In this document: in pieces, positions 17,411 through 62,485 of the stretch | How positions within the stretch are numbered: position 1 is the first letter of the stretch | Layout of the letters: each line of letters opens with the position of its first letter | Assembly: GCA_000002435.2 (NCBI GenBank) | Contig: CM018790.1 | Reading direction: 5' to 3' (one strand) | From: Giardia intestinalis | Taxonomy: Eukaryota | DNA length: 64,000 nucleotides | The notes under the pieces: model-generated | Seen by the model: only the letters and a program-made list of their open reading frames with translations | What the model was told of the DNA's origin: nothing | Database searches by the model: none | Made by a program: the position numbers and the translations under genes

Positions 17411-17416
17411 TCCATA

Positions 17417-20400
17417 ATGTGTTCTGTCAGGATGTCTCCTCTCCCGTTTATCGTCCTTTGCACGCGAGAGCCCCTCTTCATCGTCTTTTCGCTCACCGGA
17501 AACATGGCCATCTCCGATCCCTTCCGGCTCCAGTCCCCTGGGACGTGTCTGTTCTGGCACGAAGCACGGTCCCGGCTCTACATAGGCCACGCATCTGGCA
17601 ATGTTAGCATTTACGCGCTGGCCTACGAAAGGGACCCAGACGCCCCACAGTTTGCTGACGGGATAAACCTTTCAGAAGACCCCAGCAACACGGGGAACTC
17701 CAGGCAGCCCTCTCTGGCCAGCACCACCGTAGATGCTGCCATGCAGATCCTCGGAAAGAGCCGCTCCTTCGACTCGCTGACGCGGGAGGAGCTCTTGAAG
17801 GTGTACCCGGAGCTCCGGTCGTCGTTGATAGACGTCTCCAAGAGCACCGCGGAGGCGCTGCAGAGGTCCTCCCAGGAGAAGGAGCGGCTCCGAGGGAAGT
17901 CCAAGCAGCTCATCGCCATGGCCTCCGAAGACCTTGAGGTCGTGAGCCTCATCACATCGCAGATCTTTGACGCCGGGCAGAGCACGCTTCTCAGCCACGG
18001 GATCAAGGAGACGCAGCTCATCGCCGACGACCCCCTGGCCTTTGTCAAGGCGACCGTGGCCCCAGACCCCGTCGCCGCGGCAACGCACGAGAAGCGCCAC
18101 GGGGGCGTGCATCTGACGATCCGTGCCGAGTTCGTCACCACCAAGTATGTGGTCGCGGGGAGCGTCAGGTGCATGGACGCCGGGCGCGGCCAGTGGGAGG
18201 AGGCCATGGCAGACGACCTGTTTCGACTGGCCGTCGTGGGCTCCGATGCCGCGCTCGTCATTCTGGACGAGGACCTGGGGGTCGTCTGCACGTTCTCGGA
18301 CTTGCACCCGGAGGGGATCATGCGGTGCTACGTCGTCATCGATCACATCACAACCATTGGCTTCAGCAACGTCTACCAGATTGGCCCGGAGGCGGTCCGC
18401 TCCTGCCACTTGGGGATGGCCGTGACAAAGGAGGAGCTCGAGGACGACCCTGCCCGGGTGGACGGCGAGGACGATAGGCGCGGGAAGAGGAGGCGCGAGG
18501 CCGTGCAGGTCTCTGACAAGAGGCTCGTGAAGGCCAACCTCGTGAAGTCCGCGCACCTGATCACCCTTGTCCAGCCGCCCAGGCCGGGCAAGCCTATTCT
18601 GGCGTCGTTCGCTTTCGGGAACGTTATTGGCGTTATTGACCACGACAACGTGGTGACCCTCATCCATGCACTGACGGGCGCGCACATCACGCGGATCGAC
18701 ATCGCCATCAACCTGCACGGAGTCAAGGTCGGCACCGGGGTCTATAGCCGCAAGCACGACTTCGGCTACATCCCCTTCGGGCGCCGGCTGTTCGTCCTCA
18801 AGGTGGTTGCCAACGAGGAGCTGGCCAAGGAGCAGGTGGTCTGGGACTTTGAGGACGCGAAGCGCGAGGAGGAGCAGCGGGCACTGGGCAAGCGCAGGCC
18901 GAAGGAGCTGATCAAGCACGCGCCCGAGCATCTTCCCCTGGGGTCTATCAGCAAGGAGTGCGCCGGCGTTGTCGTCAACCAGCGCATGAACGAGCTTGGC
19001 GCCGTCACAGGCCCTGGGGAAGTGACGATCTTTTCGCTCCTTACCGGCCGGCCGTCCAGGATCTACGACATTGCAAGGATCTCCAAGACGCTTCTGGAGG
19101 GCCGAGACGGCACAGGCAGCGGTGGCGATGACCCACAGGATTCCGTACTGGGTTCGGAGTATGCAAGCATCGAGACGTGCGACCTCTCGAAATTCTACGC
19201 AGAGGGCCAGAGCGAGGTGACGGAGGCCGATCTCCACTTTTCCACTCCAGACGACGAAGCCCGATACAGGACGCTCCACAAGCCACCGCAGATCCTCAGC
19301 CAGATCCCCAGCGCCCCCGACGCCCCCCAGTCTCTGCTCGACGCCCTCGGGCGGCGGATTCTGTCCCTCGCCGTCGACAGCAAGGGACGCGTTCTTTACG
19401 TCATAGGAACCCACGGTGCAGTGACACTTTACTGGAAGACCGGCTCTCTCTTCGACATATCCAACGTTGGGATTACCGGCCGGAGGACATGCGAAGACGA
19501 CATTGACATCGTCGACAACCCGTTTGATGGCCAAAGACTGGGCGACGCACAGAGGGAGCCTTCTGCAGGGGCCGACTCGCACATGTCGTCCGGAGCTTCT
19601 TCGTACAGCCTGGGGCTCAATCTGTCTCAGATCATCGTCAAGGCCAACAACGCAGCCTTTGTGAGACAGCTGCTTTCCGACAAGTCGATAATGCGCGCGC
19701 AAATCTTAGCCACCGACAGAGCGCGCGGCCTTCTCTTCCTCTGCGACAACCTCAACCCGCAAATTGTGCGCGCCATAGACATGAAGCCGAGCCACGAGTA
19801 CGTGAACAGGATAGGGCTGTCGAGGCAGCTGACAACCTTCGACATCTTTTTTGCAGGAGGAGCAGACCACTTTGCAAGGGCACGGCAGCAGCTCGCGGCG
19901 TTCTTTTCGTCGAAGCCCGTATTTGTAGGCGCAGACGACCTCTCTTCAAAGCCGGAGGTTGTAAGACGCTTTTGCCCCGAGTTCCTGTGGGCCCGAGATG
20001 TCTCTTCAGCAGGACAGCCGAATCAGGCGCCGTCTCCGATCCAGAAACTGCTCTGCGACGTTCTCTACACCGGGCATGCAAAGAAGGCTCGAAGTGACTC
20101 GTACGTGACGTGCATTGATGCCTCGGAGGAGCTGTCTCTGCTGGCCATAGGCACGTCTGACGGCCGGATTCTCGTCCACGACACGATGTCTGTCAAGCTG
20201 CTGCAGCAGGGGGTGATCCAGCCCCCGACAATCCCGTCTGTTGGCTCCCCCATAACGGCCCTCTGCTTCCTGGGACAGTGGCCCCTTCTGTTTTCTGCGT
20301 CGGCCTCTGGCGCCTGCTACATCCACGCGGTCCGCTCGCTGTACCCGAACTTTTCGCTCGTCTGCGCGTTTTACCACGGAAGCTACCATCCCCTGGGCTA

Positions 20401-22366
20401 TCCACTGAATGCAGACTTTCAGGCCGGCTGGGTCCAGACAGCTGGATTCTTGAAGCACGCCCTTCTGCCCCTCTCTGATTTCAACTCAGACGTCCAACTG
20501 TATGGGAGTAGATACGAGGACGTGGTTCGCTACCTGATAGAAAACTTTTCTCCAGATCTCCTCCACACAAAGTACTGCCCCGAACGCAAGGGCCCTGCGC
20601 CCGGGGACGAGGCTCTGCGGTCGATTGACGGGGAGTTCCGTGCCAATCGTCTGCTTTCCACGAAAACGGCCTACGGGGCGCGAGTCGGAGACCTCCAGGC
20701 GTCGACTGCAACGCCCTCCATGGACGCCTCGATGACAACCGATAGGGAGGGAGAGGCCGCTTCCGGAATGATCCAGCCTCCATCGATGTTTGAGAGGCAT
20801 ACTGCTTCCAATCGCTATGCGTACATCATGGTCCAAGAATCCACAGCGGCTACTGAAGAAGGCCAACCTCTGTGCCATCTCCAGCAGGAGACCGTCGGTG
20901 TACAGGACGACTTGGAAGAAAGGTCAGAGCGTGCGCACACCAGAATGCCGGGTCCGTCTTACCAAGAGATTGTCTCTGCAACAATGGCACTCCTTCGCCG
21001 ATACGTCCCCATTTCCCAGAACTTCCGAGGCCTTCAAGCCCGTCGGCGCAGAACGCTTATGAAGATTCGGGCTGCTGCTCAGGTGATAATGCTTGTTTCT
21101 TTCTACTTCACGCGCTTCTTAGCTGTTCCTCGGAGGGTCTACGTTGACTTCCTTCCTGTTCCGCTGGGCACCAGTCAGCCAAGGCAGGCCGCCTCTCGCC
21201 GCAAAGTGCCTCAGGGAGCGGTGAAGCTCTCCGACAAGTCCAGCAAGGTGATCGAGGACTTTTCTAAGTCGCGCTTTAAGACGTCCGGCGTTGACGTGGA
21301 GAGCCCGGCGGCTGCGCAATACGCAGACGCCCATGCGTCTCTTTATGGCACCATGATGGGGTCCTCTGTGACGCGGCCCGGGATGGAGGACGTAGAAGCG
21401 GAGGAAAACGGCATTCTCTACCAGTACGTCTTCAGGGACAGAACCAAGGTGAGAGTGCCAGTCCGGAAGGAGTCCGTTCTTGCTCTCTCCGCTCGCACCA
21501 TGCCGACAGCTGTCTGCTTTGTGGACGGCGCCCACTCTATCCTGGTCGGGGACGACGCAGGCTTTGTGACCCTCTACAAGATTCAGAATCTGATAGCTGC
21601 TCTGGGGATCACACGCAGTCTCGACACGCAGCAGCTCCCTAAGGGTCTTCTTCATGCCCCGAGCTCTGGGAAGACGTCGCCAGTCGTTCCGTCTTCGTAT
21701 CTCCGGGTACGGTACGTCCACCGTGCTCACGCCGCCCCCATTAGCCTGCTTTCTCCAGCTGGTTCCAACAGCCAGGCATACATTTCGATAGGCGGGGACA
21801 AACGAGTAGCGCTGTGGGGCTTGGACGGGGCCCAGCTCCTCGGCATTGTTCAGAGAGTCAATCTTGACCCGCCTCCGAAGGGATGGGACTCTCTTTTCGG
21901 CGTGCCTCTTACCGCACGCTCCGGGCAAAAGTCCTCAGAGAGTGGACTGGCAGATACAGCAAGGCTGTCCATCGAAGACCTCGAAGATGTGCCCAGTCAA
22001 GTCTTCCAGGACCCCCCTCCACCTATGCGTCTTGAGGCCCCGCCTGCGTGCGCATACCCGTGGACATATGCGCCGGAGAGCTCTGCAGGGGATCGCGTAG
22101 ACACAGTCATTCTTCAAAGCATGCAGCAGACAGGGACGCTGGGTAACAGTGTGGAAGAGGCGGACCTGCTCGGTGTGACCCGCCAGCTTCTGGCATCGCG
22201 GCGGCCAGTCATTGCGCCTACGTCCCAGGGCGATCCTGGAACCCTCCTCAAAGCCACAGGCCTCACGGGTCGCCTGCTTGAGCGGAAGGGGGACTCGTGG
22301 ACGGTTCGGGCCATGAAGCTTCGCGCGGCGCAGCAGCCCCTGGGATGGAGTGCAGGACCCCAATGA
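17417..22366 (+). CDS. Large hypothetical protein (1649 aa), GC-rich, no recognisable domain. Possibly beta-propeller-like.
   Basis: A continuous 4.95-kb ORF cannot arise by chance even in GC-rich DNA. The long minus-strand ORFs overlapping it (for example 17672–19702) are treated as GC-driven artefacts. The start is ambiguous: ATG at 17417 is only 6 nt past the upstream stop, and alternatives lie at 17432 and about 17504. Confidence 0.55.
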   Translation: MCSVRMSPLPFIVLCTREPLFIVFSLTGNMAISDPFRLQSPGTCLFWHEARSRLYIGHASGNVSIYALAYERDPDAPQFADGINLSEDPSNTGNSRQPSLASTTVDAAMQILGKSRSFDSLTREELLKVYPELRSSLIDVSKSTAEALQRSSQEKERLRGKSKQLIAMASEDLEVVSLITSQIFDAGQSTLLSHGIKETQLIADDPLAFVKATVAPDPVAAATHEKRHGGVHLTIRAEFVTTKYVVAGSVRCMDAGRGQWEEAMADDLFRLAVVGSDAALVILDEDLGVVCTFSDLHPEGIMRCYVVIDHITTIGFSNVYQIGPEAVRSCHLGMAVTKEELEDDPARVDGEDDRRGKRRREAVQVSDKRLVKANLVKSAHLITLVQPPRPGKPILASFAFGNVIGVIDHDNVVTLIHALTGAHITRIDIAINLHGVKVGTGVYSRKHDFGYIPFGRRLFVLKVVANEELAKEQVVWDFEDAKREEEQRALGKRRPKELIKHAPEHLPLGSISKECAGVVVNQRMNELGAVTGPGEVTIFSLLTGRPSRIYDIARISKTLLEGRDGTGSGGDDPQDSVLGSEYASIETCDLSKFYAEGQSEVTEADLHFSTPDDEARYRTLHKPPQILSQIPSAPDAPQSLLDALGRRILSLAVDSKGRVLYVIGTHGAVTLYWKTGSLFDISNVGITGRRTCEDDIDIVDNPFDGQRLGDAQREPSAGADSHMSSGASSYSLGLNLSQIIVKANNAAFVRQLLSDKSIMRAQILATDRARGLLFLCDNLNPQIVRAIDMKPSHEYVNRIGLSRQLTTFDIFFAGGADHFARARQQLAAFFSSKPVFVGADDLSSKPEVVRRFCPEFLWARDVSSAGQPNQAPSPIQKLLCDVLYTGHAKKARSDSYVTCIDASEELSLLAIGTSDGRILVHDTMSVKLLQQGVIQPPTIPSVGSPITALCFLGQWPLLFSASASGACYIHAVRSLYPNFSLVCAFYHGSYHPLGYPLNADFQAGWVQTAGFLKHALLPLSDFNSDVQLYGSRYEDVVRYLIENFSPDLLHTKYCPERKGPAPGDEALRSIDGEFRANRLLSTKTAYGARVGDLQASTATPSMDASMTTDREGEAASGMIQPPSMFERHTASNRYAYIMVQESTAATEEGQPLCHLQQETVGVQDDLEERSERAHTRMPGPSYQEIVSATMALLRRYVPISQNFRGLQARRRRTLMKIRAAAQVIMLVSFYFTRFLAVPRRVYVDFLPVPLGTSQPRQAASRRKVPQGAVKLSDKSSKVIEDFSKSRFKTSGVDVESPAAAQYADAHASLYGTMMGSSVTRPGMEDVEAEENGILYQYVFRDRTKVRVPVRKESVLALSARTMPTAVCFVDGAHSILVGDDAGFVTLYKIQNLIAALGITRSLDTQQLPKGLLHAPSSGKTSPVVPSSYLRVRYVHRAHAAPISLLSPAGSNSQAYISIGGDKRVALWGLDGAQLLGIVQRVNLDPPPKGWDSLFGVPLTARSGQKSSESGLADTARLSIEDLEDVPSQVFQDPPPPMRLEAPPACAYPWTYAPESSAGDRVDTVILQSMQQTGTLGNSVEEADLLGVTRQLLASRRPVIAPTSQGDPGTLLKATGLTGRLLERKGDSWTVRAMKLRAAQQPLGWSAGPQ

Positions 22367-23041
22367 AATAACTGGGCAAGAGATAGAGGGACACTGGGTG
22401 CTGAGCGCGGGACAGATCTGAGCATCTGCTTGGAGTAATTCGCTCAACCTAACGGCTGCTCTAGCGCTGTGCCGCTGACTTTTTGTAGGTGTGGCTCGAG
22501 CATCATTATAGACCGCTTGGTGGTCAACTGTGCCCGACAACGAGGAATGGACAAGAGGCCACGAACCGAGCAGTTCGGCCCATCCCTGATCGAGGAACGC
22601 CCAGGAGCTCTGCGGCCGTCAATGTTGCTGGCTCGGAAACGAATGCCCAACGAAGCTCGTCGGGTGACGCTCGAGAGCCGGCCACTCGCTGCCTTCCAAG
22701 CGACGCTTCCAGCCAACCTCTGTGGTCCTTGTCAAGCAGATGAGACCAATTGAGGAGAGAGCGGCCGATCAAGGTCAGCGTGACTCTAGCGCGGCGGAAA
22801 GGATGGAGACCAAGCGTTCTGACACGCACGTATCGATTGGACAGAAACAACCCAGAGATTCCAGCAGCATGCTGACGCCAGTGTGGAGCATTGATGAAGA
22901 ACCCCGGCCCTGAAGGGCGACACCCCTGTCTCTGAAGAGGCAGCCATGCTTGTGTGCGCCTCGACTACACCCGCAGAGGGCCCTATAACATAGCCTTGCA
23001 AGTACTAGTGGGCAGAGTGAACGATTTTTGAAACAAACTTC

Positions 23042-23290
23042 ATGGCCGACGGCGATGACCACACAGCCAGCTCCCCAGCAGTAGCCCCCGCCATCCCACA
23101 ATTCACTCGTAAGAAGCTCCACAGGCGGTTGGATGACGTGCTAGGAAGAGATGCCACAGATACAGTCTACTCTCTCAAGGGTTATCCAGACCTCGCTGTG
23201 AAGGAGATCCCTCTCGACGGCCTGGACAAGGGTAACATGGACGCCATCAGAATAAGATTGACCGGGGTGAGGCTGTCGCCTGCCACCTGA
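23042..23290 (+). pseudogene. 5' fragment (82 codons) of a NEK kinase gene, paralogous to the intact NEK at 53389. It is truncated upstream of GilD/Genie2 copy A.
   Basis: MADGDDHTASSPAVAPAIPQFTRKKLHRRLDDVLGRDATDTVYSLKGYPDLAVKEIPLDGLDKGNMDAI.. aligns with MADGDDHAASSQTSAPAIPQFTIRDLHEWLDSVLNESTMGTVYSLEGYPNLAVKEILLDGLGKSNVDAI.. The 20 bp upstream of the ATG are also shared (tttttgaaacaaacttcATG versus tttttggaaacaaactgtcATG). The kinase domain does not continue. Confidence 0.6.
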
Positions 23291-23865
23291 CTGGTCCCCC
23301 ATGCGAGCCACCGCCGCCCTGGGCACGCTTCTCGCATGCACGGCTGGGACCAGACGTCTGAGAGCCGAATCTCCTCGGATCCCTGCAGAAGAAGCCCGGA
23401 CGAGGGGCTGAGGGCCCCGGTACTCAGCCCAGCAAGCAGCAGACCCGCGACTGCCCGATGAGGGAACCACCGAGGAGGGCTCGCGGGGGCCCGAAGAAGA
23501 GAGTCTAGAGAGCAGCCGATAGAGTGAGCAGGGGGCCCGCACCTCCCTGTCATGGAGAGCGGCGCATGGTGGCAGGCCCCAGTGGCCATTCCTCTAGGAG
23601 ACCACCTGGCCCCACAGGATCGATTACTAACTACACGAACTGGCTCAAGAACGCCGAGGTTCACTCAAGGGGCTGCACCCTTGGGGACCTCCTACGCGAT
23701 CCACAGCACAAGGAGTCGCCACACCTCTTTCACCTCACCAGAGGGCCTCGAGCAGCACGTCTCGGGAACTCTCTCCCGTCCGGGCTCCTTCTGCAGCCTT
23801 GCGACAGACAGACGGTGCCAGCTCACGCGGGCCCTCGCCGTTGCCTGCCGTGATGCCCCGGACCA

Positions 23866-26800
23866 GTGGGTGCCGCTGGGGCCTGCCTGGAAGTATGATC
23901 CAAAGATCTCACAGGTAAGCCTCGCTCAGTCCCTGGCCAGCCCGGAGGCGGGGGCTGGCCACGGGTCGCAGTGATAGCCACAGTGGTGATAGGGAAGAGC
24001 TCCCTCCGTTTGTGGATCTGGGGCCTGTGCGTTCCTCGGCTGTTCTGCGGATGTGCACAGCTGGACTTGAGGCGAAGGAGAGCCCGCGAGGACCAGATCC
24101 GTATTACGAACGCAAGATCATACCTTTGGGCCCCAGAGAGCAAGCCGTGAGTCTCTACTCGGAGGACCACTTCGAAGACGCTTGCCCTCTCGGCAGGACA
24201 CACACGCTGGCTCTGTGGCCTGCCGTGCGAGAGCGCCAAGCAACCAACCGAGCACCTGAGAGAAGCAAACGATGACAGACACAGAGTGCTGGGCGACGAC
24301 AAGCTGATCCTTCCGGCCCACATACCGAACCAGACAGCTGCCATGCTCATCCACCAGGGTGCGCGCATGATCGCGAGCATCGAGCAGGCCGGGACTGGGG
24401 TCGCGCTCCCCGCAATCAGGGGCCTAGACGCCCTGGTGGGAAGCTGCCAGAGGGCCCCTCTGCCAGACAACACCACGGAGCAGTCCCAGAGCAAGGCAGA
24501 CCCAGACCCCGAGAAGGCGAGGCGCCGGATAGCAAACAGGGTGAACAACGCGCTGAGCTTTAATAGCTGCCAGGTCCTCTGTTCCTTGACACACCCACGA
24601 TAGACAAGCCAGAGAAGGCCAAGGCCCCCTCAGCGCGCTACACCCGTGCGTCCCCCCGAAGGCTGCGTTGGCCTTGACTACCCTCCATCGATGAACTCGA
24701 CAGGGCTGGAGTGGCAACCGAGGAGGAAATGAGGAAGGCCCTGTTTGGAACTCTCAACAAGAAGGCCTCGGGCGTGTCTGGTCTCGGGCCGGTCCAGCTC
24801 AGGCGATGAAGCAGAACGACAGCTTTGTGAAATACCTCACGCAGGCGTACAACGAGCTGACCACTCACCCCGAGGCGATACCCGAGGTGACGACCATGTT
24901 CGAGTTCCGGGCGATCCTCATCCCGAAGGAGTCCGACGGATACCCCCGATCGCGATAGGCGGACGGTCACGAACACCTTCCACCGCGTCCTGCTGAAGGG
25001 CTGATCAGGCATGCCAACTACCTCTCATGCGAGCAGATCGCCTTCAAGCAGAACGCATACGCGGTAGGCGTGAGGAGGGCCCACGAGCTCATCAGCGGGC
25101 GGGGATGCACGCCGTCTCCCTCGACACAAAGAACGCCCTCAACTCGCTCCCGAGGGCAGAGGTCGTCAGAGCCCTGAACGAGGCGGGCGTCCCGAAGGTC
25201 CTGGTCGACTACATCAGGAACTTCCTCGACCTGAGGCACAGCAAGGACGTGAAGTGCGAGGTCTGCGGCGTCCCCCAGGGCGACCCGCTCAGCACGTTCC
25301 TCTTCTGCATGGCCACCGAGCGCCTCCTGAGACGCCTCGAGGAGAGGGGCATCGCCTTCCTTGCCTATGCAGACGACATCGTGGGGTTCCACGACGAAGG
25401 GTACCCAGCAGGTGTGATAACACAGCAGACCATGGACCTGACGATCAGGAGCGACAAATGCAAGTCCACCATGGCGGGCGAGGAGGTGACCTTCCTCAAC
25501 CACCCGGCGTCCCCCACTCCTGCTAGTCTCGCCCCAAAGGCCATCGCAGGTGCCGAGACTGCCTTGAAGAAGATCGAGAATGCCCCAATAACCATCCACC
25601 AGAAGCTCATCCTGGTGTCACTCTGTGTGGTCCCGATGGTGAGCTACGCCCCCCTGGTCGAAGTAACATCGGACAAGGCGGACTACGAGGAGTTCGACAG
25701 ACGTCGCACAAGGCATCAGCACTAACCAACAGAAGCTGCGATCGCCTGGTCGACTTCCTAGCGTACCCGAAGGAGAAGGGCGGCCTGGACCTGCTCATGC
25801 CTGGATTCTACCACGACGAGCTGCGGAGGGTATGGGCCTCCTTGGACGTCAACAAGGGGGCCAGAGACCCGGTGGAGCTGTCGGTGGGCGGCCAGGCACT
25901 GCAGGGGAAGGGGCCTACTTCAACCGCCTCCTCACGCGCACACACCAGCTTCCGGACAGAGCGGCGACGTACTGTCTGCAGATGTGCGGCGTGCTGACCG
26001 AGGAGGAAAGGGCCCTGAAGGAGAAGGGCGGCTCGATCATGGCGCAGAAAGAGGCACCTGCCCGGGCTGCCACGAGGCACGACATGATCGTCGCGTGCCT
26101 GTACCTCCGCGTCTCGGGGAAGCTCAGCGCAGAGCTGGAAGTCAAGACCCACAGCCACCTCAGCGACCAGAACCAGAAGCCCGACATCTGGCTCGTCGAC
26201 AAGTGCAAGGCAGTGGACGTGGGTGTCATCCAGCCCCGCCAGATGGATACCACAGCGAGAAGGCCAAGAAGTACAGGGACGGGACGCTCCCGATCATCTA
26301 CGGGACGGACGGATCCCTCCACCCCAGTCCAAGGGGCACCTCAAGGAGCTCCACGTGGACCTCTGTCCGGGCTGCCTTCGCCATCGCCCACATGGCTGCA
26401 GAGGCGAACGAGCACCTGACGGGGCTGATCAGACGGGCCGGGCCGAAAGCCTGGCCACCCAGAGCGACCGTCTCCTGTCATCCTACTTCTGACAACCGAA
26501 TGAGTCCATCCCCGGGACCTGTCGACAACGACCGAGAAGGGGCGCAAGACTGGACACACAACCGAGTTGAATCCCAACCAGAAGAGAAAGCCCCGCTAGC
26601 TGCTGCTGATATACATGGACAGTATTGAGAATGACAACAAAGACCAGAGCTTCACCAACCGTAAAGGGAGAACAAGGAGAGGCACCCTAGTAGACCAGCG
26701 AGCCTGCAGGACGGCGTGATCTCCAAAAGGATCTATGTGCACTCTTAGACCGAGCACACACCCGCAGAACACCCGAGGAACGCAGATAGCTCCTCCCTTC

Positions 26801-26927
26801 CACCACTGTGGTCTTTATATTGATACACGACCAACCCTCGTCTCCGGACATCACCAAAAATTGAGCGGGAATTTACCAGTAAGATCTCTGGACAGCGCCC
26901 GCAGGCAGGCCCCAGCGGCACACCACA
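23866..26927 (+). mobile_element. Degenerate non-LTR retrotransposon, GilD/Genie 2-like, copy A. About 3.06 kb, flanked by ~170-bp terminal inverted repeats.
   Basis: It holds broken RT ORFs with YADD and GVPQGDPLSTFLF motifs (25027–25725). The ends are inverted repeats: the left end reads ccagtgggtgccgctggggcctgcctggaag.. and the right end reads ..caggcaggccccagcggcacaccac, with imperfect similarity extending about 170–200 bp inward. It is near-identical to the copies at 31772–34861 and 43534–46610. Confidence 0.8.
25027..25725 (+). pseudogene. Reverse-transcriptase fragment inside copy A. Frameshifted and degenerate.
   Basis: 232-aa ORF containing ..FLDLRHSKDVKCEVCGVPQGDPLSTFLFCMATERLLRRLEERGIAFLAYADDIVGFHDEGY... 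The flanking reading frames are broken. Confidence 0.75.
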
Positions 26928-27002
26928 CACTCAGTATACCTCTTTGGCAAAAGTATTCTTAATGATATCATTGGTGTTAAGACCGATTGCTCCGGAAATT
27001 CC

Positions 27003-29027
27003 TTGCTGCACAAGGCCGCTCTGGAGTGCAGTGGCCTTGAAGCTAAAGCGCTTAGCTCGTCACTAGCCTACCTTTGCCGATTACGCAATACTTCTGGAGA
27101 GACAGCCTTACAATTGGCGATAAAACATGGAAATTTGGAGCTCGCCAAACTTCTGATTGATGAGGAAGCAGGTAGCTATTCTGACACAAAAGAATCTGCA
27201 GTGGAGCTGGCCCTTCTTCGGGGTTCATGCGAAGTAGCCAGGCTATTAATTCCATTTGAAGGGAAGATACTTACTGAGCGGGGGTATACGCAGCTGATGT
27301 TAGCGGCTTCGTTTGGTGAGAGACGACTCGTTGAGAAGTACATCCAACGACAAGCAAAGAGGCAGGCAAAGAATGGGGTCACTGCGATGCATTTGGCCGT
27401 TATATCTGCAATCTCGCTTCATAAGTCTATCAAGCTTCTGCTGCAAGAAAGAGATCGCTTGGCAACTGACAGCGGCCACCTTATAGTAGAGGCAGAAGTT
27501 CCGCTGACCCACAGCTCTGTGACACCACGAAACACACGATCTCCACGGTCTATTAGTATCCTAACCAAGTCTTGCGGTAGGGGTGACTTGTTTGCGCAGA
27601 CAGCTGAAAAGGAATCAGCCTACTCTAGGCCACGTGTCACTTCGTCTAGACGCCCAATAACATCGGTACGATATCCAAGACAGACGCCGGCTCTATCTGC
27701 TAGTACACGTGTAGGAACACCAAAAAGCAGCTTCAGCTCACGAGGAGGCCAGCAAATATCTCCTAGCATTACCGTACCATCGATGCTATCCTCCTCTCCA
27801 AGAAAGAGGAGCGGAAGATGCGCGGCTTCGCGGTCTGGAGGCTCTAAAACATCTCCCATGGCGCGACCGCGCACAACCCAAATCACAGCCCAAAAGCTTC
27901 CTGCTGAAGTTACTAAGCACCGGGCCCAGAGCACGTACGGAACCCAGCTTGACGGGAGCATAAAGGTACCAGTGCTTCAGCTTGATAACCTGAGCGGAAA
28001 GCATGTGTCATTTCCAGATACTCTCAGGATAAAGGACGATGCCAGCGTTGTAGAGTGTAGAATTAGAAAGCTCAGATCTCTGTTTCAAGCCTTCGTCGAG
28101 ATTATCCTGCTCCTTATACCACTAGAAAAACAGATCTCCCAAAGGAATGGCCTCACGGTGCTCATGATAGCTGCGAAGGCTGATGTTGTAGAACTAGTTA
28201 GACTGCTTGTCAATGACGAGAAGTTGATGGTAGATGCACGCGGAGAGACTGCCTTGATGATAGCAGTTAGGAACAATGCAGCAGCATCTGTCAAAGGGCT
28301 GCTTAGCCACGAGGCAACCCGTGCATCTGCCAATCGTGAACGCTATACCGCATTGCACCTAGCAGTGCAAACGAATAACAGCATTCTTGTTGAGCAGCTA
28401 GCAACTCTAGAGAATAATATTCCACAGGCATGCTACACGTTAAAAGACTTTCCTAACAGCAGGAATGCGCACGCCTTGATCAACGTGACCGCCCTCATGA
28501 TGGCGTCTATCGGTAATGCTCCAGAATGCGCTCTGATTCTCTCCAGATACGAGGCCGGGCGCCACGAGCAGCTCTTCGGCTATACTGCGTTGATGCTTGC
28601 CGCATACTTCAATCACTCAGCCATTGTAGAGCTTCTTTTACATCCTGAATCGAGGGAGACTATGCGCAACGGCTGGACAGCGCTCATGGTTGCCAGCAGC
28701 AGAGGAAACCTTCGCTGCTGTGCTAAGCTGGCAACTTGCGAATCCAAGCTGACCGCTCAGGGGCTGACTGCGCTCATGCTAGCGTGCAAGCACAATTTCC
28801 TCAACATTGTGACGCTTCTCTATCCGCTCGAATCAAGCATCTATCACAAACGAGTAAGAAACGGGGTTGTGGAGCGTTGGTCCTGTTTAACATATGCGGC
28901 TGCAAAGGGGAGCACAGAGGTGGTAATGTTTCTCTTGGAACATCACCCCTCTCGAGAAGACATACGATTGGCTGCGAGCTGCTCACATAACCCAAAGATA
29001 TCAATCCTACTGTCAGCGCACCATTAA
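27003..29027 (+). CDS. Ankyrin-repeat protein (Giardia 'protein 21.1'-type) with a Ser/Thr-rich central linker. Appears 5'-truncated: no in-frame ATG near the ORF start.
   Basis: Ankyrin repeats are present (GETALQLAIKHGNLELAKLLID, TALMIAV.., TALHLAV.., TALMLAAYF..). The track start at 27003 is a TTG. The frame stays open back to a TAA at 26880–26882, inside the GilD copy A terminus, with no ATG. The first in-frame ATG sits inside an ankyrin 'QLMLAAS' motif at about codon 95. Confidence 0.6.
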   Translation: MLHKAALECSGLEAKALSSSLAYLCRLRNTSGETALQLAIKHGNLELAKLLIDEEAGSYSDTKESAVELALLRGSCEVARLLIPFEGKILTERGYTQLMLAASFGERRLVEKYIQRQAKRQAKNGVTAMHLAVISAISLHKSIKLLLQERDRLATDSGHLIVEAEVPLTHSSVTPRNTRSPRSISILTKSCGRGDLFAQTAEKESAYSRPRVTSSRRPITSVRYPRQTPALSASTRVGTPKSSFSSRGGQQISPSITVPSMLSSSPRKRSGRCAASRSGGSKTSPMARPRTTQITAQKLPAEVTKHRAQSTYGTQLDGSIKVPVLQLDNLSGKHVSFPDTLRIKDDASVVECRIRKLRSLFQAFVEIILLLIPLEKQISQRNGLTVLMIAAKADVVELVRLLVNDEKLMVDARGETALMIAVRNNAAASVKGLLSHEATRASANRERYTALHLAVQTNNSILVEQLATLENNIPQACYTLKDFPNSRNAHALINVTALMMASIGNAPECALILSRYEAGRHEQLFGYTALMLAAYFNHSAIVELLLHPESRETMRNGWTALMVASSRGNLRCCAKLATCESKLTAQGLTALMLACKHNFLNIVTLLYPLESSIYHKRVRNGVVERWSCLTYAAAKGSTEVVMFLLEHHPSREDIRLAASCSHNPKISILLSAHH

Positions 29028-29583
29028 TAGGAATGGAATGTGTAATATACTGTAGTGAGAGGGCATTGGCTAAGGTTGACTCGCCGCTACCCTAGGTAAC
29101 AAACATTTTGGTAGACAGTTATCTTTGCGTGATCGTCTTAGAGGCGTTAAGAAGGCTCGAAAAACGACTGAGATTCTCATTAAGAAGGAGCATTCTAGTT
29201 TGTAAGCGTTTCAACAATAAGTTCTCACAGGTAATAATGGCCACTTGTAATTAGAACGACAGGAGATGCGTTGTGGAGCTAGTAGGGATTCGGTGTATTG
29301 TGCATTGTGACATTGCTTGTGCTCTGCTATTTTTGTTAAAGCTTCAGTTGATTGCATCCCTCCTATCGTATTTACTAGAGCATACTCTGTACATTGGATA
29401 GGCCCCATTTTGCTGATTAGACAGTAGCTAGTAGTAGGGGCAGATGCATGTCAAAGACGATGCCCGAACTATTGACTGAGCACAGGAGAGCCGTCAACTA
29501 ATAAGTGCAGAAGCAGTTCACACTCTCCTGGCACAGACAGCCATCCGAGAACTTCCTGGCTGCTACACGAACTAGTACATTAT

Positions 29584-31479: not shown

Positions 31480-31771
31480 AAGACCGCAATTATTTCGTAA
31501 TTTACACTACCCAAGCTACGATGCACTACAGCTATATGGCATAGGCTCCTGCATATTTTCTGTTGCATGCCGTAATGGTGTAGTGTGCAGTACTACACTA
31601 CTCCGGGCTGTTACCGACCAGAGCTCGCCGAGTAGACCAGTCGTCTGAGGCAGAGGCGGACACTTATGTAGGGACCGAGGGCCTTCTGCTCTACAGATGG
31701 ATGGCTATGAGACGCGGCATATCGCCTGCTCGTTGGTAGGGGCTTCTCGACGGCAGGGAACGCTGCTTTCA

Positions 31772-34700: not shown

Positions 34701-34861
34701 CACCACTGTGGCTATCACTGCGACCCGTGGCCAGCCCCCGCCTCCGGGCTGGCCAGGGACTGAGCGAGGCTTACCTGTGAGATCTTTGGATCATACTTCC
34801 AGGCAGGCCCCAGCGGCACACCACTGGAAGCAACCGGTGGGTGGAGTAAAGAAACTGGTAG
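31772..34861 (-). mobile_element. GilD/Genie 2-like degenerate retrotransposon, copy B, in inverted orientation. About 3.09 kb.
   Basis: Its ORF set mirrors copy A (RT fragment 32964–33662 on the minus strand, identical 232 aa). Termini are cagtggtgtgccgctggggcctgcc at 31772 and its reverse complement at about 34840. It shares the extended 5' terminus 'tttactccacccaccggttgcttccagtgg' with copy C. Confidence 0.8.
32964..33662 (-). pseudogene. RT fragment of copy B, identical in protein to 25027–25725.
   Basis: Identical 232-aa translation with the YADD motif. Confidence 0.75.
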
Positions 34862-35192: not shown

Positions 35193-36097
35193 TTAGTTTG
35201 CGCCTTCGGTGTCAACACGCCAAAGTGCACAAAGAGCTCGCCCGAGACGGGCGTCGTAGAGGCGCTTAAAGTCTGAGCCGAGCTTGCCGTACTTTTCATA
35301 CGCAAACTTACACTTTAATGCCTTGTCGAACATAAGAGAGGTGATGCGAACCATCCGGTCACTATCGCCCTTTTTGCCAGAGTTGGCGAGGGAGCATAGG
35401 TAGGCAGCGGCATAGCCGGGCTGTAGCAGGTAGAAGTGGGCGGTAAGCAGGGCCTCCATGTCTGTCTTCACGTAGTTGGACGCAATAAGGGTCTCCACCT
35501 CGACGCCGTACTTCTCTGTGAACACCTTATTTATCTTTTTCCACTCTCCCTCTGTGGTGTTGCACAGGAGATCGATCAGGCCATCGGGGTTGCCAGATTC
35601 CAAGTAGCCCATGAGCGCCGCGGCATCCTCACTAATAGCCTTGCGCTCGTATCTGTCGTGTTTGATCCACCCCTTGATGAGTTGCGACCACGGCTCAGAG
35701 CTGCCGATATCACTGAGCAGGGTGTCGTTGGCCACTTTCTGAAATATGCGCGTGTAGTGTGCTCCCATCTCGTACCAGTCTTCTGGGCCGCAAAAGAGGA
35801 CGACGTCTATCAGTGCAGACTTGTTGTTCTTGCCACTGAGGGCCTGGTTGAGTAGGCGTGCACGCACCTCCTGTGCATCTGTCCACGCATACATCAGAAG
35901 CGTTTCAGCAGGCCCTGACTTTAGAGCTTTCTTGATTGCATCAGCAGGGTACATCCCATAGATGGACTTGTAGTTGATTACGACTTGTCTCGGTGCTTCG
36001 ACGCATACTGCGAGGTCAACTGGACAAGAGCGGACTCGTTTTTGCTATCTATAATCTCCCTCAGCTCCGTGGTGAGGTCGGATACAGTGAGGGACAT
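35193..36097 (-). CDS. Alpha-giardin (annexin homologue) with an apparent single-nucleotide frameshift near 35990 to 36000.
   Basis: The body (35193–35954) has alpha-giardin hallmarks ([19 protein letters not shown].., [60 protein letters not shown]). The N-terminus (ATG 36097: [39 protein letters not shown]) is in a different frame and stops. The two segments join into one alpha-giardin if one base is added or removed. Confidence 0.7.
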
Positions 36098-39447: not shown

Positions 39448-39501
39448 TTGACAACCCTGTTTTTTAATAAGTTCGTTAGTAAAATTGGACAAAGGTGTGG
39501 A

Positions 39502-46500: not shown

Positions 46501-46610
46501 GTTACGGCCCGTGACCAACCCTCGTCTCCGGACATCGCCAAAAATTGAGCGGGAATTTACTCGCGAGATTTGCGGACAGCGCCCGCAGGCGAGGGCCCAG
46601 CGGCACACAC
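43534..46610 (+). mobile_element. GilD/Genie 2-like degenerate retrotransposon, copy C. About 3.08 kb. It starts 8 bp after the flippase stop codon.
   Basis: Its ORF set is identical to A and B (RT fragment 44722–45420). It sits at a constant 19,695-bp offset from copy A. Its right terminus (..gcgagggcccagcggcacaca) is more diverged than the others. Confidence 0.8.
44722..45420 (+). pseudogene. RT fragment of copy C.
   Basis: Identical 232-aa translation with YADD. Confidence 0.75.
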
Positions 46611-53388: not shown

Positions 53389-56346
53389 ATGGCTGACGGC
53401 GATGACCACGCAGCCAGCTCCCAAACATCGGCCCCCGCCATCCCACAGTTCACCATCAGGGACCTCCACGAGTGGCTGGATAGCGTGCTTAATGAAAGCA
53501 CCATGGGGACAGTCTACTCCCTCGAGGGCTATCCAAACCTCGCCGTGAAGGAGATCCTCCTCGACGGCCTGGGCAAGAGCAACGTGGACGCTATCAAGCT
53601 TGAGCTGGCCACCCTCCCCGACCTCTCCCATCCAGGGGTTCTCAGGCACCATCAAGTAGTCGAAGACGAAAGCTTCATTTACATCGTCATGAATCGCCAC
53701 GACAAGACCCTTGAGCAAGTGTTTATCGACTGCAAGCGGAGGAAGATCCCCGTGTCTGCCGGCGTGGTCCTCTCCATTCTGAGACAGCTCTCCGCCGCCC
53801 TCGCCTACCTCCATGGCCTCAGTGGGGCAAACACTAAAGGCCTCGTCCACCGCGACCTCAGGCCTGCCAATATATTTATCAGCGCAGACGGAGAGCGCTT
53901 CATCATTGCTGACTTCGGCCTCTGCAAGGACGCCCTGAGATGCGGGAGCACCATTGCAGGCACGGCAGTATACATGGCCCCCGAGGCGCTCCTCCGTAAT
54001 GAGGCCAGCCCCGCCTCCGACGTGTGGAGCCTCGGGGTCATCATTTATGAACTAGTAACTCTGAGGAGGCCGGACTTCTTGGGGGGCAAGGAGCCGGCAG
54101 AGGTCTTCATCGATGGGTGGAGGCCCGATCTGAGCGGTGTCACTGATGGCTTCATGCAGAATGTTCTGGAGAGGATATTCGTGCTGGAGCCAGAGAGGAG
54201 GCCGACGGCCAGGGAGCTGTGCAAGATGCTCACTGCGGCTGACATCCCAATTGGTGAGCTGGGGCATCGGTATGTGGCACTAGAAGACAAATGCAGCGCC
54301 TTGGAGGCTGCTTTGAACAGTGCTAATGCTAATATCGTGCTTCTGAAGGACGAGCTCAAGGTCGAGTCGGATAAGGTCACTGCTCTTGAGGCAGCCCTCG
54401 ACGCCAGGTCTGCTGAGATTGCCTCTCTAAAGGGCGCTCTTGAGAGCAGACCAAGTGAGGTCGACGCCCTGGGACAGGAGCCCCGACTTAAGACCACCGG
54501 GATTGACGCTCTTGAAGATCAGTGCAAGGAGTATTCAGCCATGATTAAGGCACTAGAGAATAGATTCACAGAAGTTAGTGGTGGGATGAACACGAGTAGC
54601 CCCCAGAGCAACCTCTCCACGCTGCCTAGACTGATACGAGCTGCATACACGAATGACACAGAGACCGTCCGGGTGCTAATTGAAGAGGGAGTCACCGGCC
54701 AGCGCGACGAGCAGGGGATGACAGCCCTCATGCACGCGGCCCAGCAGGGGCACATTGGTCCTGTCAGGCTGCTTGTTAAGAAGGAAAAGGGTATCAAAGA
54801 TAAAAACGGCTGGACCGCGCTCATGCACGCCGCACATAACGGCCACCCTGAGGCATCTAGGATCCTCACCCCTCACGAGCATGGGCTTCAAGACTTACAT
54901 GGCCATACAGCTCTGATGATCGTCGCACAGCAGAGAAATCTTGAAATGGCCAAGATCCTCCTTGGTCGTGAAAAGGGGATGAAGGACAAGGACGGTAATA
55001 CAGCCTTCATGCACGCCCTCATGAATAAGCACACAGGCATAGCTCTGCTTCTTCGCAAGCATGAGGCACCCTCGTGGACCCCGCTCATGTGCGCGGCCTT
55101 CACTGGAAATGTTACCATGGCGAGGAGGCACCTCCATGAGAGAGACGTGAAGAACAGCGACGGCGAGACTGCGCTGACCATAGCCGCGAGGGCGGGGCAC
55201 AAGGACATCGTGGAGCTCCTCGACCCCACAGATGAGAATGGCGTCACTGCCCTCATGCGAGCTGTTGACAGAAATGATGTAGATACTGTGAAGGCCCTCC
55301 TTCCCCTCCAGGGGGGACAGAAGGCGACGGGGGATGTCGAGATAGGCAAGCTGACTATGTACGGTGGAACGGCGCTGATGAGGGCAGTAGCACATGGCTA
55401 CGCAGAGATAATGGAGATGCTTGTGGAGAAGGAGGGGGGCATGAGAGATAGGAATGGTAAGACGGCCCTTATGATAGCAGCAGAGAAAGGCCACCCAGAG
55501 TGCATTAAGCTACTGGTGAGAAACGTCCGTGAGCGTAATTCCTTGAGCTGGACAAGTCTTATGTATGCTGCTTGCATTGAGGATGCTGATGCAGTTAGGA
55601 GTAGCCTTCAGGAAGCGGGGGTAAAGGATAGTGATGGATGTACGGCTCTCGTGTGGGCTGCAAGAACTGGTCACACAGAATGTGTCAAGCTACTCTTAGA
55701 GAAGGAGGGCGGGATGCAGACAAGTTATGGTTCAACAGCCCTCATGAGTGCAGCAGAGGAAGGCCATGCAGGGGCAGTGGAGGTACTCCTGGAAAAAGAG
55801 GGACGCATGAAGGATAGTGATGGACAGACAGCCCTTATGTATGCAGCACAGAACGGCCACTCAAAATGTGTTAGACTACTAGTAAAGAAGGAGGGAGGCG
55901 TGCAGGATATTTTTGGACGGACCGCCCTCATGAGTGCAGCAGAGGAAGGCCATACAGACTGCCTTGCGCTTTTGCTAGAGAAGGAGGGAGGTATGAGAGA
56001 TGACAATGGCAAGACCGCCCTCATGCTTGCAGCAAGGTATGGTAGCACAGACTGTTTTAAGCTCCTACTAGAAAAGGAAGGAGGTATGAAAAGTAACAAT
56101 GGACAGACAGCTCTTATGGCTGCAGCAAAGGAAGGTCACTCTGCCCACATCGCGCTGCTCTTGGAGAAGGAGGGGGGCATGCAGGATAGTGACGGATGGA
56201 CCGCCCTCATGTGGGCAGTCTCCTGCAGACAGATAGAGTGCGCGAGACTCCTCGCAGAGAAGGAGAAGAACGTAAACAGGAGGAAGCTCTTGGGGATAGT
56301 CAAAAGGAGAGGCAATAGCAAGATGATGGCCCTCCTCTCAGAGTAG
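53389..56346 (+). CDS. NEK-family serine/threonine kinase with coiled-coil and C-terminal ankyrin repeats. Catalytic residues are intact.
   Basis: GTVYSLEGYPNLAVKEI, LVHRDLRPANIFIS, IIADFGLC, AVYMAPE, DVWSLGVIIYEL, then coiled coil (KCSALEAALNSANANIVLLKDELKVESDK..) and more than 12 ankyrin repeats. AGTAAAC at 56351–56357 lies 4 nt after the stop. The start was re-set to MADGDD.. by paralogy with 23042. Confidence 0.9.
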   Translation: MADGDDHAASSQTSAPAIPQFTIRDLHEWLDSVLNESTMGTVYSLEGYPNLAVKEILLDGLGKSNVDAIKLELATLPDLSHPGVLRHHQVVEDESFIYIVMNRHDKTLEQVFIDCKRRKIPVSAGVVLSILRQLSAALAYLHGLSGANTKGLVHRDLRPANIFISADGERFIIADFGLCKDALRCGSTIAGTAVYMAPEALLRNEASPASDVWSLGVIIYELVTLRRPDFLGGKEPAEVFIDGWRPDLSGVTDGFMQNVLERIFVLEPERRPTARELCKMLTAADIPIGELGHRYVALEDKCSALEAALNSANANIVLLKDELKVESDKVTALEAALDARSAEIASLKGALESRPSEVDALGQEPRLKTTGIDALEDQCKEYSAMIKALENRFTEVSGGMNTSSPQSNLSTLPRLIRAAYTNDTETVRVLIEEGVTGQRDEQGMTALMHAAQQGHIGPVRLLVKKEKGIKDKNGWTALMHAAHNGHPEASRILTPHEHGLQDLHGHTALMIVAQQRNLEMAKILLGREKGMKDKDGNTAFMHALMNKHTGIALLLRKHEAPSWTPLMCAAFTGNVTMARRHLHERDVKNSDGETALTIAARAGHKDIVELLDPTDENGVTALMRAVDRNDVDTVKALLPLQGGQKATGDVEIGKLTMYGGTALMRAVAHGYAEIMEMLVEKEGGMRDRNGKTALMIAAEKGHPECIKLLVRNVRERNSLSWTSLMYAACIEDADAVRSSLQEAGVKDSDGCTALVWAARTGHTECVKLLLEKEGGMQTSYGSTALMSAAEEGHAGAVEVLLEKEGRMKDSDGQTALMYAAQNGHSKCVRLLVKKEGGVQDIFGRTALMSAAEEGHTDCLALLLEKEGGMRDDNGKTALMLAARYGSTDCFKLLLEKEGGMKSNNGQTALMAAAKEGHSAHIALLLEKEGGMQDSDGWTALMWAVSCRQIECARLLAEKEKNVNRRKLLGIVKRRGNSKMMALLSE

Positions 56347-56350
56347 CCAG

Positions 56351-56357
56351 AGTAAAC
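56351..56357 (+). promoter_or_regulatory. AGTAAAC polyadenylation signal of the NEK gene.
   Basis: The Giardia consensus is AGTRAAY, placed 0–20 nt after the stop. Here it reads tagccagAGTAAACaac. Confidence 0.7.
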
Positions 56358-56397
56358 AACTACCGCCTCCACATCAGACCTTACACCTCACAGCCCC

Positions 56398-56652: not shown

Positions 56653-56704
<52 letters not shown>

Positions 56705-62483: not shown

Positions 62484-62485
62484 GG

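Follow-up and report, generated by a model that had tools for sequence, protein, structure and literature searches.

A NEK 5′ stub and a truncated ankyrin gene beside a GilD-type element near a Giardia chromosome end: probable edges of two unrelated partial duplications

Main finding

We analysed a 64,000-nucleotide stretch of Giardia intestinalis DNA, assigned to isolate WB by exact protein look-ups (hereafter the window; GenBank assembly GCA_000002435.2, contig CM018790.1, a 1.54-Mb record), in which a short NEK-like ORF and an ankyrin ORF lie on either side of a GilD-type element (Table 1). Judging from sequence comparison, each of these pieces is very probably the broken edge of a partial segmental duplication, the two duplications being unrelated and copied from different places on another chromosome record of the same genome (4,018,654 bp; hereafter the 4.02-Mb record). 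Each piece has an intact parent (the best match among the sequences compared), both duplicons have defined extents and junctions, and they are present in independent assemblies.

The first-pass annotation had offered two readings: a single NEK-ankyrin gene split by the element, or independent debris at a hotspot of duplication and insertion near the chromosome end. The former is rejected, since each piece has an intact parent of its own at a separate locus, the ankyrin ORF being best matched by an ankyrin-only 21.1 protein and the stub by a NEK other than the one at 53389. The latter is supported by what we found, namely two duplicons with different parents and three dead reverse-transcriptase elements. 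Further debris comprises a truncated WD-repeat gene and, at the right end of the window, a 28S fragment and a GilM-like array. The Rfam search of positions 56000-64000 retrieved only the 28S 3′ fragment, and a 5,477-bp tandem unit was identified as a GilM-like retrotransposon rather than rDNA. The locus, which lies about 30 kb from the chromosome end, is an ordinary chromosome-end patchwork, a known kind of feature.

Table 1. Features of the locus and related features elsewhere in the window.
Feature	Position	Strand	Description
Left duplicon	17412–~23250	+	5.8 kb; high-identity part 17412..23133; the stub is its right edge
Left duplicon contents			WD-repeat/EF-hand codons 256-1906, 676-bp intergenic region, first 92 bp of NEK CDS
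WD-repeat copy GL50803_00113673	17417-22366	+	ORF; last 1,651 codons of the parent gene
Core promoter/initiator motif	23024..23041	+	ATTTTTGAAACAAACTTC; common to this NEK subfamily
NEK 5′ stub	23042-23290	+	82-codon ATG ORF; older annotation XP_001705874.1 'Protein kinase'
Spacer	23250..23862		~0.6 kb; orphan DNA between stub and copy A
GilD-type dead non-LTR retrotransposon (psiRT), copy A	23863-26929	+	3.07 kb
Reverse-transcriptase remnant in copy A	25108..25698	+	Pfam RVT_1, E=4e-16
Right duplicon	26930..29027 (to ~29030)	+	Codons 256-953 and stop of an ARP-1/Protein 21.1 gene
Possible strongly diverged 3′ tail of right duplicon	29028..29072	+	Uncertain
GilD-type copy B	31767-34850	-	Self-BLAST
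GilD-type copy C	43534-46615	+	Self-BLAST
Full-length NEK	53389..56346	+	KAE8302556.1, 985 aa; paralogue, not the parent of the stub

The NEK stub at the edge of a multi-gene block

The 82-codon stub ORF is present with its ATG start, as first annotated, and its homology with the 5′ end of the NEK at 53389, including the 18-20 bp that precede the ATG, was recovered (23024-23249 versus 53369-53596, E=1e-42). This paralogy had been described as perfect, but it amounts to 80.5% identity at the nucleotide level and 48/73 amino acids (66%). It stops at about codon 70-73 (~23249), the final ~10 stub codons being unrelated, and nothing significant was found between the two sequences beyond 23249, where the alignment score was reached by 487 of 500 shuffles. 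The absence of a kinase domain after the stub was borne out, in that no frame of 23200-23900 displayed kinase homology past NEK residue 73; the 82-aa product itself had no Pfam match. In an exhaustive search of representative sequences, 20 relatives aligned with the stub by their first ~75 residues only (32-64% identity). It is this exhaustive search that brought up the NEK family, a word-indexed search with the stub returning its orthologues alone. This ORF, 82-83 aa long, recurs in other isolates, where many of its amino acids differ.

Two features designate the NEK of the 4.02-Mb record, located downstream of GL50803_0060028, as the parent of the stub. First, the promoter motif ATTTTTGAAACAAACTTC is kept in the stub, in this NEK, in NEK 53389 and in the P15 NEK, and only the NEK of the 4.02-Mb record matches the stub further upstream of it. 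Second, the 50 bp upstream of the stub and positions 23082-23133 (codons 14-31) are identical to this NEK, and NEK 53389 differs there. Relative to its paralogues, the stub is nevertheless a mosaic: it holds 11 bp (codons GDDH) that are missing from the present NEK of the 4.02-Mb record, and a patch of 32 bp (23134-23165) that is unlike every paralogue seen. These two features point to a history more mosaic than a single simple copy event. We also considered whether the stub could have come from the start of a 989-aa NEK located before the intact ARP-1 gene (locus L001), and rejected this candidate for want of similarity.

The stub is part of a larger block. Window positions 17412-23230 are 97.6% identical to positions 1698-7505 of locus L015, which carries GL50803_0060028 (1906 aa) exactly, and amino acids 256-1906 of this protein match window positions 17411-22363. 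An exact protein look-up placed this WD-repeat parent gene, intact (1906 aa, KAE8304595.1), on the 4.02-Mb record, where it is followed by the intergenic region and then by the NEK 5′ end. The left junction of the duplicon is sharp and falls immediately past the stop of the NEK ORF 15722-17410; at the other edge, in the stub, identity drops to 87% and then to about 59%. At the orthologous locus of P15, the full WD-repeat gene is followed by an 860-aa NEK and a 28S fragment, so that the ancestral intact order was WD-repeat gene, NEK and rDNA end. Both the 1641-aa and the 1906-aa WD-repeat copies are present in isolate DH.

The WB genome contains 30 Nek pseudogenes, and the Nek family is rapidly duplicated and lost (Manning et al. 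2011, PMC3218828). Similarly to these pseudogenes, the stub is a short 5′ Nek fragment that comprises the N-terminus of its subfamily and the core promoter without the kinase domain, but it is no decayed full-length gene: it forms the margin of a 5.8-kb duplicon that spans more than one gene. We infer that it is a pseudogene fragment.

The ankyrin ORF and its parent

The 674-codon ankyrin ORF, running from a TTG at 27003 to 29027, was confirmed, and so was the opening of its frame back into the element terminus (to 26883). The claim that it has no in-frame ATG was in error: there are 14, and the annotation of KAE8302551.1 (576 aa) starts at the first of them (27297), while the interval between the breakpoint and 27297 comprises four out-of-frame ATGs and no in-frame one. 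As for the ORF beginning in the middle of an ankyrin repeat, this is true of the arbitrary TTG only, the real homology to the parent starting at 26930 (codon 256), ~25 codons ahead of the first Pfam ankyrin match.

An exact protein look-up identified the parent as the intact 953-aa protein KAE8305396.1 of the 4.02-Mb record, an ankyrin-only ARP-1/Protein 21.1 whose Pfam matches are Ank families only and whose source names are 'Protein 21.1' and 'Ankyrin repeat protein 1'. Positions 3765-5852 of the two loci that carry it exactly (L003 and L004) align without gaps to window positions 26930-29017 (98.37% identity, 34 mismatches in 2,088 bp). The flanks of this duplicon and of its parent are unrelated on both sides, except perhaps for a short tail (29028-29072), the anchored alignment of which to the P15 3′ flank was marginal (score reached by 9 of 1000 shuffles) and to the WB parent not significant. 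Using tblastn, amino acids 256-953 of the parent were placed at the ORF and no trace of residues 1-255 was found anywhere in the window. We therefore rejected the 253-aa ORF located beside copy B (35193-35954, minus strand), which had been considered as the missing 5′ part displaced by an inversion between copies A and B; it is an annexin/alpha-giardin-like gene. Similarly to Protein 21.1/ARP-1 (PMC7000408), the ORF comprises ankyrin repeats only, with no Pfam kinase, and ARP-1 is its name in the WB reference annotation. It differs from the intact 953-aa ARP-1 by its 5′ truncation, which removed the first 255 residues and, with them, a putative cryptic Nek-like domain.

This domain, which is absent from the window, looks like a very degenerate Nek-type pseudokinase in profile and model comparisons. 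The N-terminal 270 amino acids of the parent gave no Pfam match even at E<=10. Aligned with hhalign to the Giardia Nek kinase alignment, the parent N-terminus gave E=0.02, the catalytic-loop and subdomain IX regions being collinear. In a profile search of PDB sequences, human Nek2 accounted for the top 3 matches, but with E=1.3. The AF2 model of this region is of low confidence (pLDDT 47); its top 22 Foldseek matches are all Nek2 and its top 50 are all kinases (E from 4e-4), with a TM score of only ~0.24. The idea of a kinase-plus-ankyrin architecture thus holds in part: the 255 residues missing from the window look Nek-like, but no similarity links the parent N-terminus to the stub.

These data bear on the proposal that the 53389 gene was duplicated and that this single NEK-ankyrin copy was split by the insertion of GilD, with the stub remaining from its 5′ end and the ankyrin ORF from its 3′ end. 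The shared orientation of the two pieces on either side of the element would agree with it, as would the homology of the stub to NEK N-termini, the putative cryptic domain of the ARP-1 parent and the fact that Giardia NEKs are kinase-plus-ankyrin proteins (PMC3218828). Parentage has already refuted this proposal, which we regard as highly improbable, and other observations also oppose it: the stub lies inside a 5.8-kb block that includes the neighbouring gene, its identity to 53389 is only 80.5%, it does not resemble the ARP-1 parent at the N-terminus, and the ankyrin ORF shares only 28-33% of its amino acids with the ankyrin part of NEK 53389.

The GilD-type element, the spacer and the junctions

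Copy A of the element has a complete 3′ end and lacks, at its 5′ end, about 23 bp that are common to copies B and C. The RVT_1 match falls in one 232-aa ORF only, the remaining reverse transcriptase being degenerate and split over several frames; this remnant is 33% identical to the reverse transcriptase of the GilM-like ORF of the window (E=4e-26). The term psiRT is that of Xu et al. (2020).

The three copies lie where genes are few, close to VSP genes and chromosome ends, and the name GilD is given here on properties only (~3 kb, multicopy, degenerate non-LTR reverse transcriptase, and location). These properties are also those of GilD, a family that Arkhipova and Morrison reportedly described in 2001 as 'dead' non-LTR retrotransposons of Giardia. 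What sets the present element apart from the GilD description is its ~25-bp terminal inverted repeats and the identity of copies A, B and C over 2.5 kb.

The presence of about 0.6 kb of unrelated sequence between stub and element was verified: the spacer has no NEK homology and no other match in the window, and its ORFs have no Pfam match. It occurs at the same place in assemblies L009 (98% identity) and L007 (94.8%). On the other side, the complete 3′ end of the element abuts ARP-1 codon 256, microhomology at the junction amounting to no more than 1 bp. A repeat-rich region with three near-identical 3-kb elements might be mis-joined in a reference assembly, an explanation that is hardly credible here, because independent short-read assemblies carry the junctions: L009 spans the stub, the spacer and the GilD 5′ junction, and both L010 and L011 run from the GilD 3′ junction through the ARP-1 fragment and the next ankyrin gene to the GilD B junction. 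These junctions are real and common to independent assemblies of other assemblage-A samples.

The clean joining of a complete element 3′ end to an internal point of a coding sequence, in the same orientation, would also be expected of a chimeric retrocopy, in which reverse transcription started at the 3′ end of the ARP-1 mRNA, reached codon 256 and switched to the 3′ end of the GilD RNA. Template switching of this kind has been proposed for the U6/L1 chimeric retrogenes. In keeping with it, high identity stops within ~10 bp of the stop codon, at an AGTGAAA polyadenylation-type motif of the parent (any further homology lying within ~45 bp), and an intact GilM-like element encoding a reverse transcriptase is present in the same window. 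We nevertheless consider this origin unlikely, given that no poly(A) or A-rich tail follows 29027, and no target-site duplication is found between the GilD 5′ flank and the 3′ flank of the fragment. Furthermore, the identical dead sequence of the three GilD copies over 2.5 kb points to DNA-level copying or conversion rather than retrotransposition, and DNA-level duplication is certain at this locus, since the left duplicon contains intergenic DNA and a promoter.

Divergence and gene conversion

The truncated and intact ARP-1 copies diverge by 1.81% in WB and by 0.33% in YACH19. In the latter, all 7 differences fall in the terminal 9 and 53 bp, and the interior 2,035 bp are identical, a near-identity that comes from short-read metagenome assemblies and may include some collapse of paralogues. 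Of the informative sites in the ARP-1 block, 15 unite the copies of one isolate and 6 unite copies of the same type; the WD-repeat block shows three site patterns that are incompatible with one another, at 25, 15 and 10 sites. These patterns indicate that gene conversion has probably taken place between the truncated copies and their parents.

The ratios dN/dS between truncated and intact copies are 0.23 and 0.24, with dS values of 0.032 and 0.042 and an intergenic divergence of 4-6%, and the lineage-polarised counts of synonymous and nonsynonymous changes gave no sign of relaxed constraint on the truncated ARP-1. The low dN/dS fits conversion from a selected parent; it would equally fit a functional truncated copy. 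As dS is near the intergenic divergence, both duplicons might be recent single copy events with no conversion, the gradient of identity reflecting purifying selection on coding sequence as compared with neutral intergenic DNA. We consider this scenario unlikely. Against it stand the YACH19 interior and the incompatible patterns of the WD-repeat block, as well as two other observations. First, the isolates that share the junctions diverge by 1.4-1.6%, about the divergence of the paralogues, yet most informative ARP-1 sites group by isolate. Second, the last ~120 bp of the stub are much more diverged than intergenic DNA.

Origin of the locus

By combining these data, we propose that the duplicon pieces were joined by end-joining or ectopic recombination during the repair of breaks in a duplication-prone, subtelomere-proximal region, and would not derive from an insertion into one gene. 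The duplications are presumably older than the split of the sampled assemblage-A isolates. Inter-chromosomal gene conversion would have held the interiors of the duplicons 98-99% identical to their parents, leaving the outermost edges to diverge. The stub is the point at which the copy in the left duplicon ends. The ARP-1 fragment is most likely non-functional too, and at most an N-terminally truncated ankyrin-only protein made from ATG 27297.

A more speculative idea, to which we give little weight, is that the truncated ARP-1 is a snapshot of how ankyrin-only 21.1/ARP-1 genes arise from Nek-like genes. In this view, the breakpoint at the retroelement removed exactly the putative cryptic pseudokinase (residues 1-255). 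The 2.1-kb frame has stayed open with a dN/dS of ~0.24, and the copy may be expressed from 27297 and kept in step by inter-chromosomal gene conversion.

Implications

Our finding is consistent with the duplicated fraction of the WB genome (6.9%) and with the rapid turnover of the Nek and 21.1 families (PMC3218828; PMC7000408). Similarly to the subtelomeric duplicon patchworks of human (PMC2323237) and yeast, the locus is a mosaic of partial genes from other chromosomes, with sharp junctions and signs of sequence exchange between copies; it differs from them by its small blocks (2-6 kb), by the compactness of the genome and by the dead retroelement at the junction.

Accordingly, the stub and the ankyrin ORF should neither be merged into one gene model nor counted as a NEK disrupted by an insertion. 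GL50803_00113673 and the 576-aa ARP-1 are 5′-truncated paralogues of intact genes of the 4.02-Mb record, a status that matters for read mapping, for the design of knock-outs and knock-downs and for family counts. The ARP-1 parent is one more candidate 21.1 protein with a hidden Nek-like domain, and the locus offers a compact and well-delimited case in which to study how duplicons form and undergo ectopic gene conversion near the ends of Giardia chromosomes.

Two duplicons of different parentage

The NEK stub (an 82-codon NEK 5' fragment) and the ankyrin ORF have different parents, so that the view of the first-pass annotation that a single NEK-ankyrin gene was split here is rejected. Its alternative, independent debris at a hotspot, is supported by the finding of two duplicons of different parentage, between which lie, with clean junctions, a dead RT (reverse transcriptase) element (copy A) and an orphan spacer. 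By exact protein matches, the window belongs to Giardia intestinalis WB clone C6 (1,539,535-bp record).

Features of the window, in order from left to right
Feature	Position (strand)	Remarks
Dynein heavy chain and NEK		leftmost
Left junction of left duplicon	17408-17420	parent WD-gene homology begins 1-2 bp past TAG of NEK ORF 15722-17410
WD-repeat gene	17417-22366	GL50803_00113673, 1649 aa
Stub	23042-23290 (+)	exact protein match to old model XP_001705874.1, 'Protein kinase'
Spacer	23250-23862	
Copy A	23863-26929 (+)	
GilD-type terminal inverted repeats	23863-23890 / 26902-26929	also 31764-31796 / 34800-34832
Ankyrin ORF (ARP-1 fragment)	26930-29027 (+)	right duplicon
631-aa ankyrin gene	29584-31479 (-)	
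Copy B	31767-34850 (-)	
Annexin-like gene and AAA ATPase		
Split P-type ATPase	39448-43526	ORFs 39448-40707 and 40641-43526
Copy C	43534-46615 (+)	
VSP with 111-bp tandem repeats	49983-52796 (-)	
NEK 53389	53389-56343	exact protein match to KAE8302556.1, 'Kinase, NEK', 985 aa
28S rRNA 3' fragment	56396-57062	starts 50 bp past NEK 53389 stop
Tandem array	57024-64000	period 5,477 bp; right end

The closest relative of the ankyrin ORF is an intact ankyrin-only protein of 953 aa (P0001; 98% identity), which has orthologues of 952-955 aa in more distant Giardia lineages (an entry of the isolate P15 is named 'Protein 21.1') and is encoded in WB itself (KAE8305396.1, 4,018,654-bp record). Contigs encoding the exact 953-aa protein align to window 26930-29017 with 98.37% identity (34 mismatches, 0 gaps); outside this block, to the left or the right, they do not match the window, and parent residues 1-255 are absent from the whole window. 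The intact ARP-1 locus, with which the P15 locus is syntenic, has a VSP on its 3' side and, on its 5' side, a 989-aa NEK unrelated to the stub. At the left junction of the right duplicon, the element end ...CAGCGGCACACCAC(ACAC) passes directly into codon 256, with at most one shared base, about 25 codons ahead of the point where the Pfam ankyrin matches begin. As had been noted, the ankyrin frame is open back into the element terminus (from 26883); it was also said to contain no ATG, but there are 14 in frame, the first of which, at 27297, is the annotated start and is preceded by four out-of-frame ATGs.

On the left, the WD-repeat gene is a 5'-truncated paralogue, the intact WB copy being GL50803_0060028 (1906 aa, 4.02-Mb record), and both forms are present in the isolate DH. 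The contig with the intact WB gene is 97.6% identical to window 17412-23230, beyond which it enters a normal kinase domain. This duplicon has a sharp left edge, immediately past the stop of the NEK before it. The start ATG of GL50803_00113673 (17417) was created by a C-to-T change (CATAACG to CATAATG) found neither in the parent WD gene nor in L009, from an independent assembly.

The stub is indeed homologous to NEK 53389 (23024-23249 versus 53369-53596, E=1e-42), but the match described as perfect over 82 codons is 80.5% at the nucleotide level and 48/73 at the amino-acid level. It does not extend past 23249, and beyond it none of the frames shows homology to a kinase, in agreement with the reported absence of the kinase domain. 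In an exhaustive search, the stub matched only the first ~75 residues of one Giardia NEK subfamily. In a four-way alignment of the stub, the 4.02-Mb-record NEK, NEK 53389 and the P15 NEK, the 4.02-Mb-record NEK is identical to the stub over the 50 bp upstream and over 23082-23133 (FTRKKLHRRL), where NEK 53389 differs. Only an initiator motif of ~20 bp is common to all paralogues, including the P15 NEK, and it accounts for the "20 bp of promoter" first noticed, the match including 18-20 bp 5' of the ATG. The stub also retains 11 bp gone from the 4.02-Mb-record NEK and has a 32-bp patch unlike every copy; at the sequence level, it is a mosaic. Across isolates, many residues of its ORF vary and the ATG frame is lost in one of them, as expected for a pseudogene.

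The parent NEK 3' of GL50803_0060028 (contig L015, 7328-7420) has an 11-bp deletion just past its ATG, relative to the stub, NEK 53389 and the P15 NEK. The deletion brings an in-frame TAA after 19 codons, so that either translation must start at a downstream ATG or the parent NEK is itself a pseudogene.

P15 carries, at the same distance downstream of its full WD-repeat gene, a NEK of 860 aa, and next to it a stretch that shares 98.6% identity with the 28S fragment of the window (56396-57029); this indicates that the ancestral order was WD gene, NEK and rDNA end.

Chromosome-end setting and neighboring genes

The tandem array, with an intact 1,109-aa minus-strand ORF carrying RVT_1 (RT domain) and a C2H2 finger, is a GilM-like chromosome-end marker. 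As its period fits the GilM length of 5,474 bp (PMC7000408), the region lies ~30 kb from a chromosome end.

Several neighbors have peculiarities of their own. The 631-aa ankyrin gene, whose protein has no exact match in the protein collection, contains a 333-bp direct repeat (29788-30120 versus 30154-30486, 97.3%), and the alignment of the YACH19 contig L010 to the window is interrupted within this gene, between 29858 and 30054. The two ORFs of the phospholipid-translocating P-type ATPase overlap, its split reflecting a frameshift or else an error in sequencing, and copy C begins 8 bp beyond its stop. The VSP ORF carries ~15 tandem copies of the 111-bp unit (96-99% identity) at 50851-52479.

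The element and its junctions

Copy A encodes a degenerate RT (Pfam RVT_1, E=4e-16) 33% identical to the RT of the GilM-like array. The three copies are identical across 23870-26388 (~2.5 kb) save two sites; all other differences fall within the final ~540 bp, where ~25 sites are specific to A (26389-26623) and ~50 to C (26562-26925). This identity suggests that the dead sequence was copied or homogenized by conversion at the DNA level, rather than freshly retrotransposed. The GilD-type element has terminal inverted repeats of ~25 bp (GTGGTGTGCCGCTGGGGCCTGCCTG ... CAGGCAGGCCCCAGCGGCACACCAC), which are unusual in non-LTR retroelements. The terminal motif of copy A recurs at the ends of copies B and C, and the 3' tip is CA-rich and variable (CACACCAC, CACACAC, CACACCACACAC).

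An assembly artefact is ruled out by the recurrence of the junctions elsewhere. The stub and the spacer, together with the GilD 5' junction, lie within the 13042-24066 span of L009 (98% identical); L010 and L011, two assemblies of another sample that also carries the intact ARP-1 gene, reach from 26872 to 31826 and take in the GilD 3' junction, the ARP-1 fragment and the ankyrin gene after it, as well as GilD B. The arrangement is thus older than the divergence of these assemblage-A isolates.

We propose that end-joining, or ectopic recombination in the course of break repair, brought the pieces together in what would be a duplication-prone chromosome-end region. Alternatively, the right junction could be a chimeric retrocopy generated by template switching, which would fit the orientation, the intact 3' end of the element and the stop of the fragment near the parent's AGTGAAA motif; however, there is neither a poly(A) tail nor target-site duplications.

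Probable exchange between duplicons and parents

In the ARP-1 block, the divergence between truncated and intact copies is 1.81% in WB and 0.33% in YACH19 (short-read metagenome assemblies), where all seven differences fall in the outermost 9 and 53 bp. When P15 serves as the outgroup, the copies are grouped by isolate at 15 sites and by copy type at six, and the WD block shows three mutually incompatible site patterns (25, 15 and 10 sites). The identity of the left duplicon to its parent is 98-99% in coding and 94-96% in intergenic sequence, then 87% at 22912-23161 and ~59% thereafter. Since dS (0.03-0.04) is similar to intergenic divergence, this gradient alone is no proof of conversion; dN/dS is 0.23-0.24, and relaxed constraint on the truncated ARP-1 was not seen in polarised counts. 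We take these patterns to mean that the duplications are old and that their interiors trade sequence with the parent copies, whereas the edges are left out of this exchange.

A probable Nek-like domain in the ARP-1 parent

The 5' part of the ARP-1 parent that is absent here is distinct from the stub. A Pfam search with parent residues 1-270 gave no match, but three indications, each of them weak, converge on a Nek-type kinase. First, hhalign against Giardia Nek kinase domains gave E=0.02, and the catalytic-loop and subdomain IX regions are collinear. Second, the top matches in a profile search of PDB sequences were to human Nek2, but with E=1.3. Third, an AF2 model of low confidence (pLDDT 47) has the strand/helix order of a kinase N-lobe, and there is only Nek2 among its 22 best Foldseek matches and only kinases among the best 50 (E from 4e-4, TM ~0.24). 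From this agreement and the fit with Manning et al., the parent is probably a Nek-like pseudokinase followed by ankyrin repeats. In the Nek2-type kinase-like residues 1-255 of P0001, likely an unrecognised Nek pseudokinase, the catalytic lysine is replaced (FVSQEI versus VWKEL).

All components of the region are of known kinds, namely Nek pseudogene fragments, ARP-1/21.1 pseudo copies, psiRT/GilD elements and segmental duplication, the last representing 6.9% of the WB genome (PMC7000408). The new points are modest: the origin of each of the two fragments, evidence of conversion between chromosomes and a probable cryptic Nek-like domain in the ARP-1 parent.
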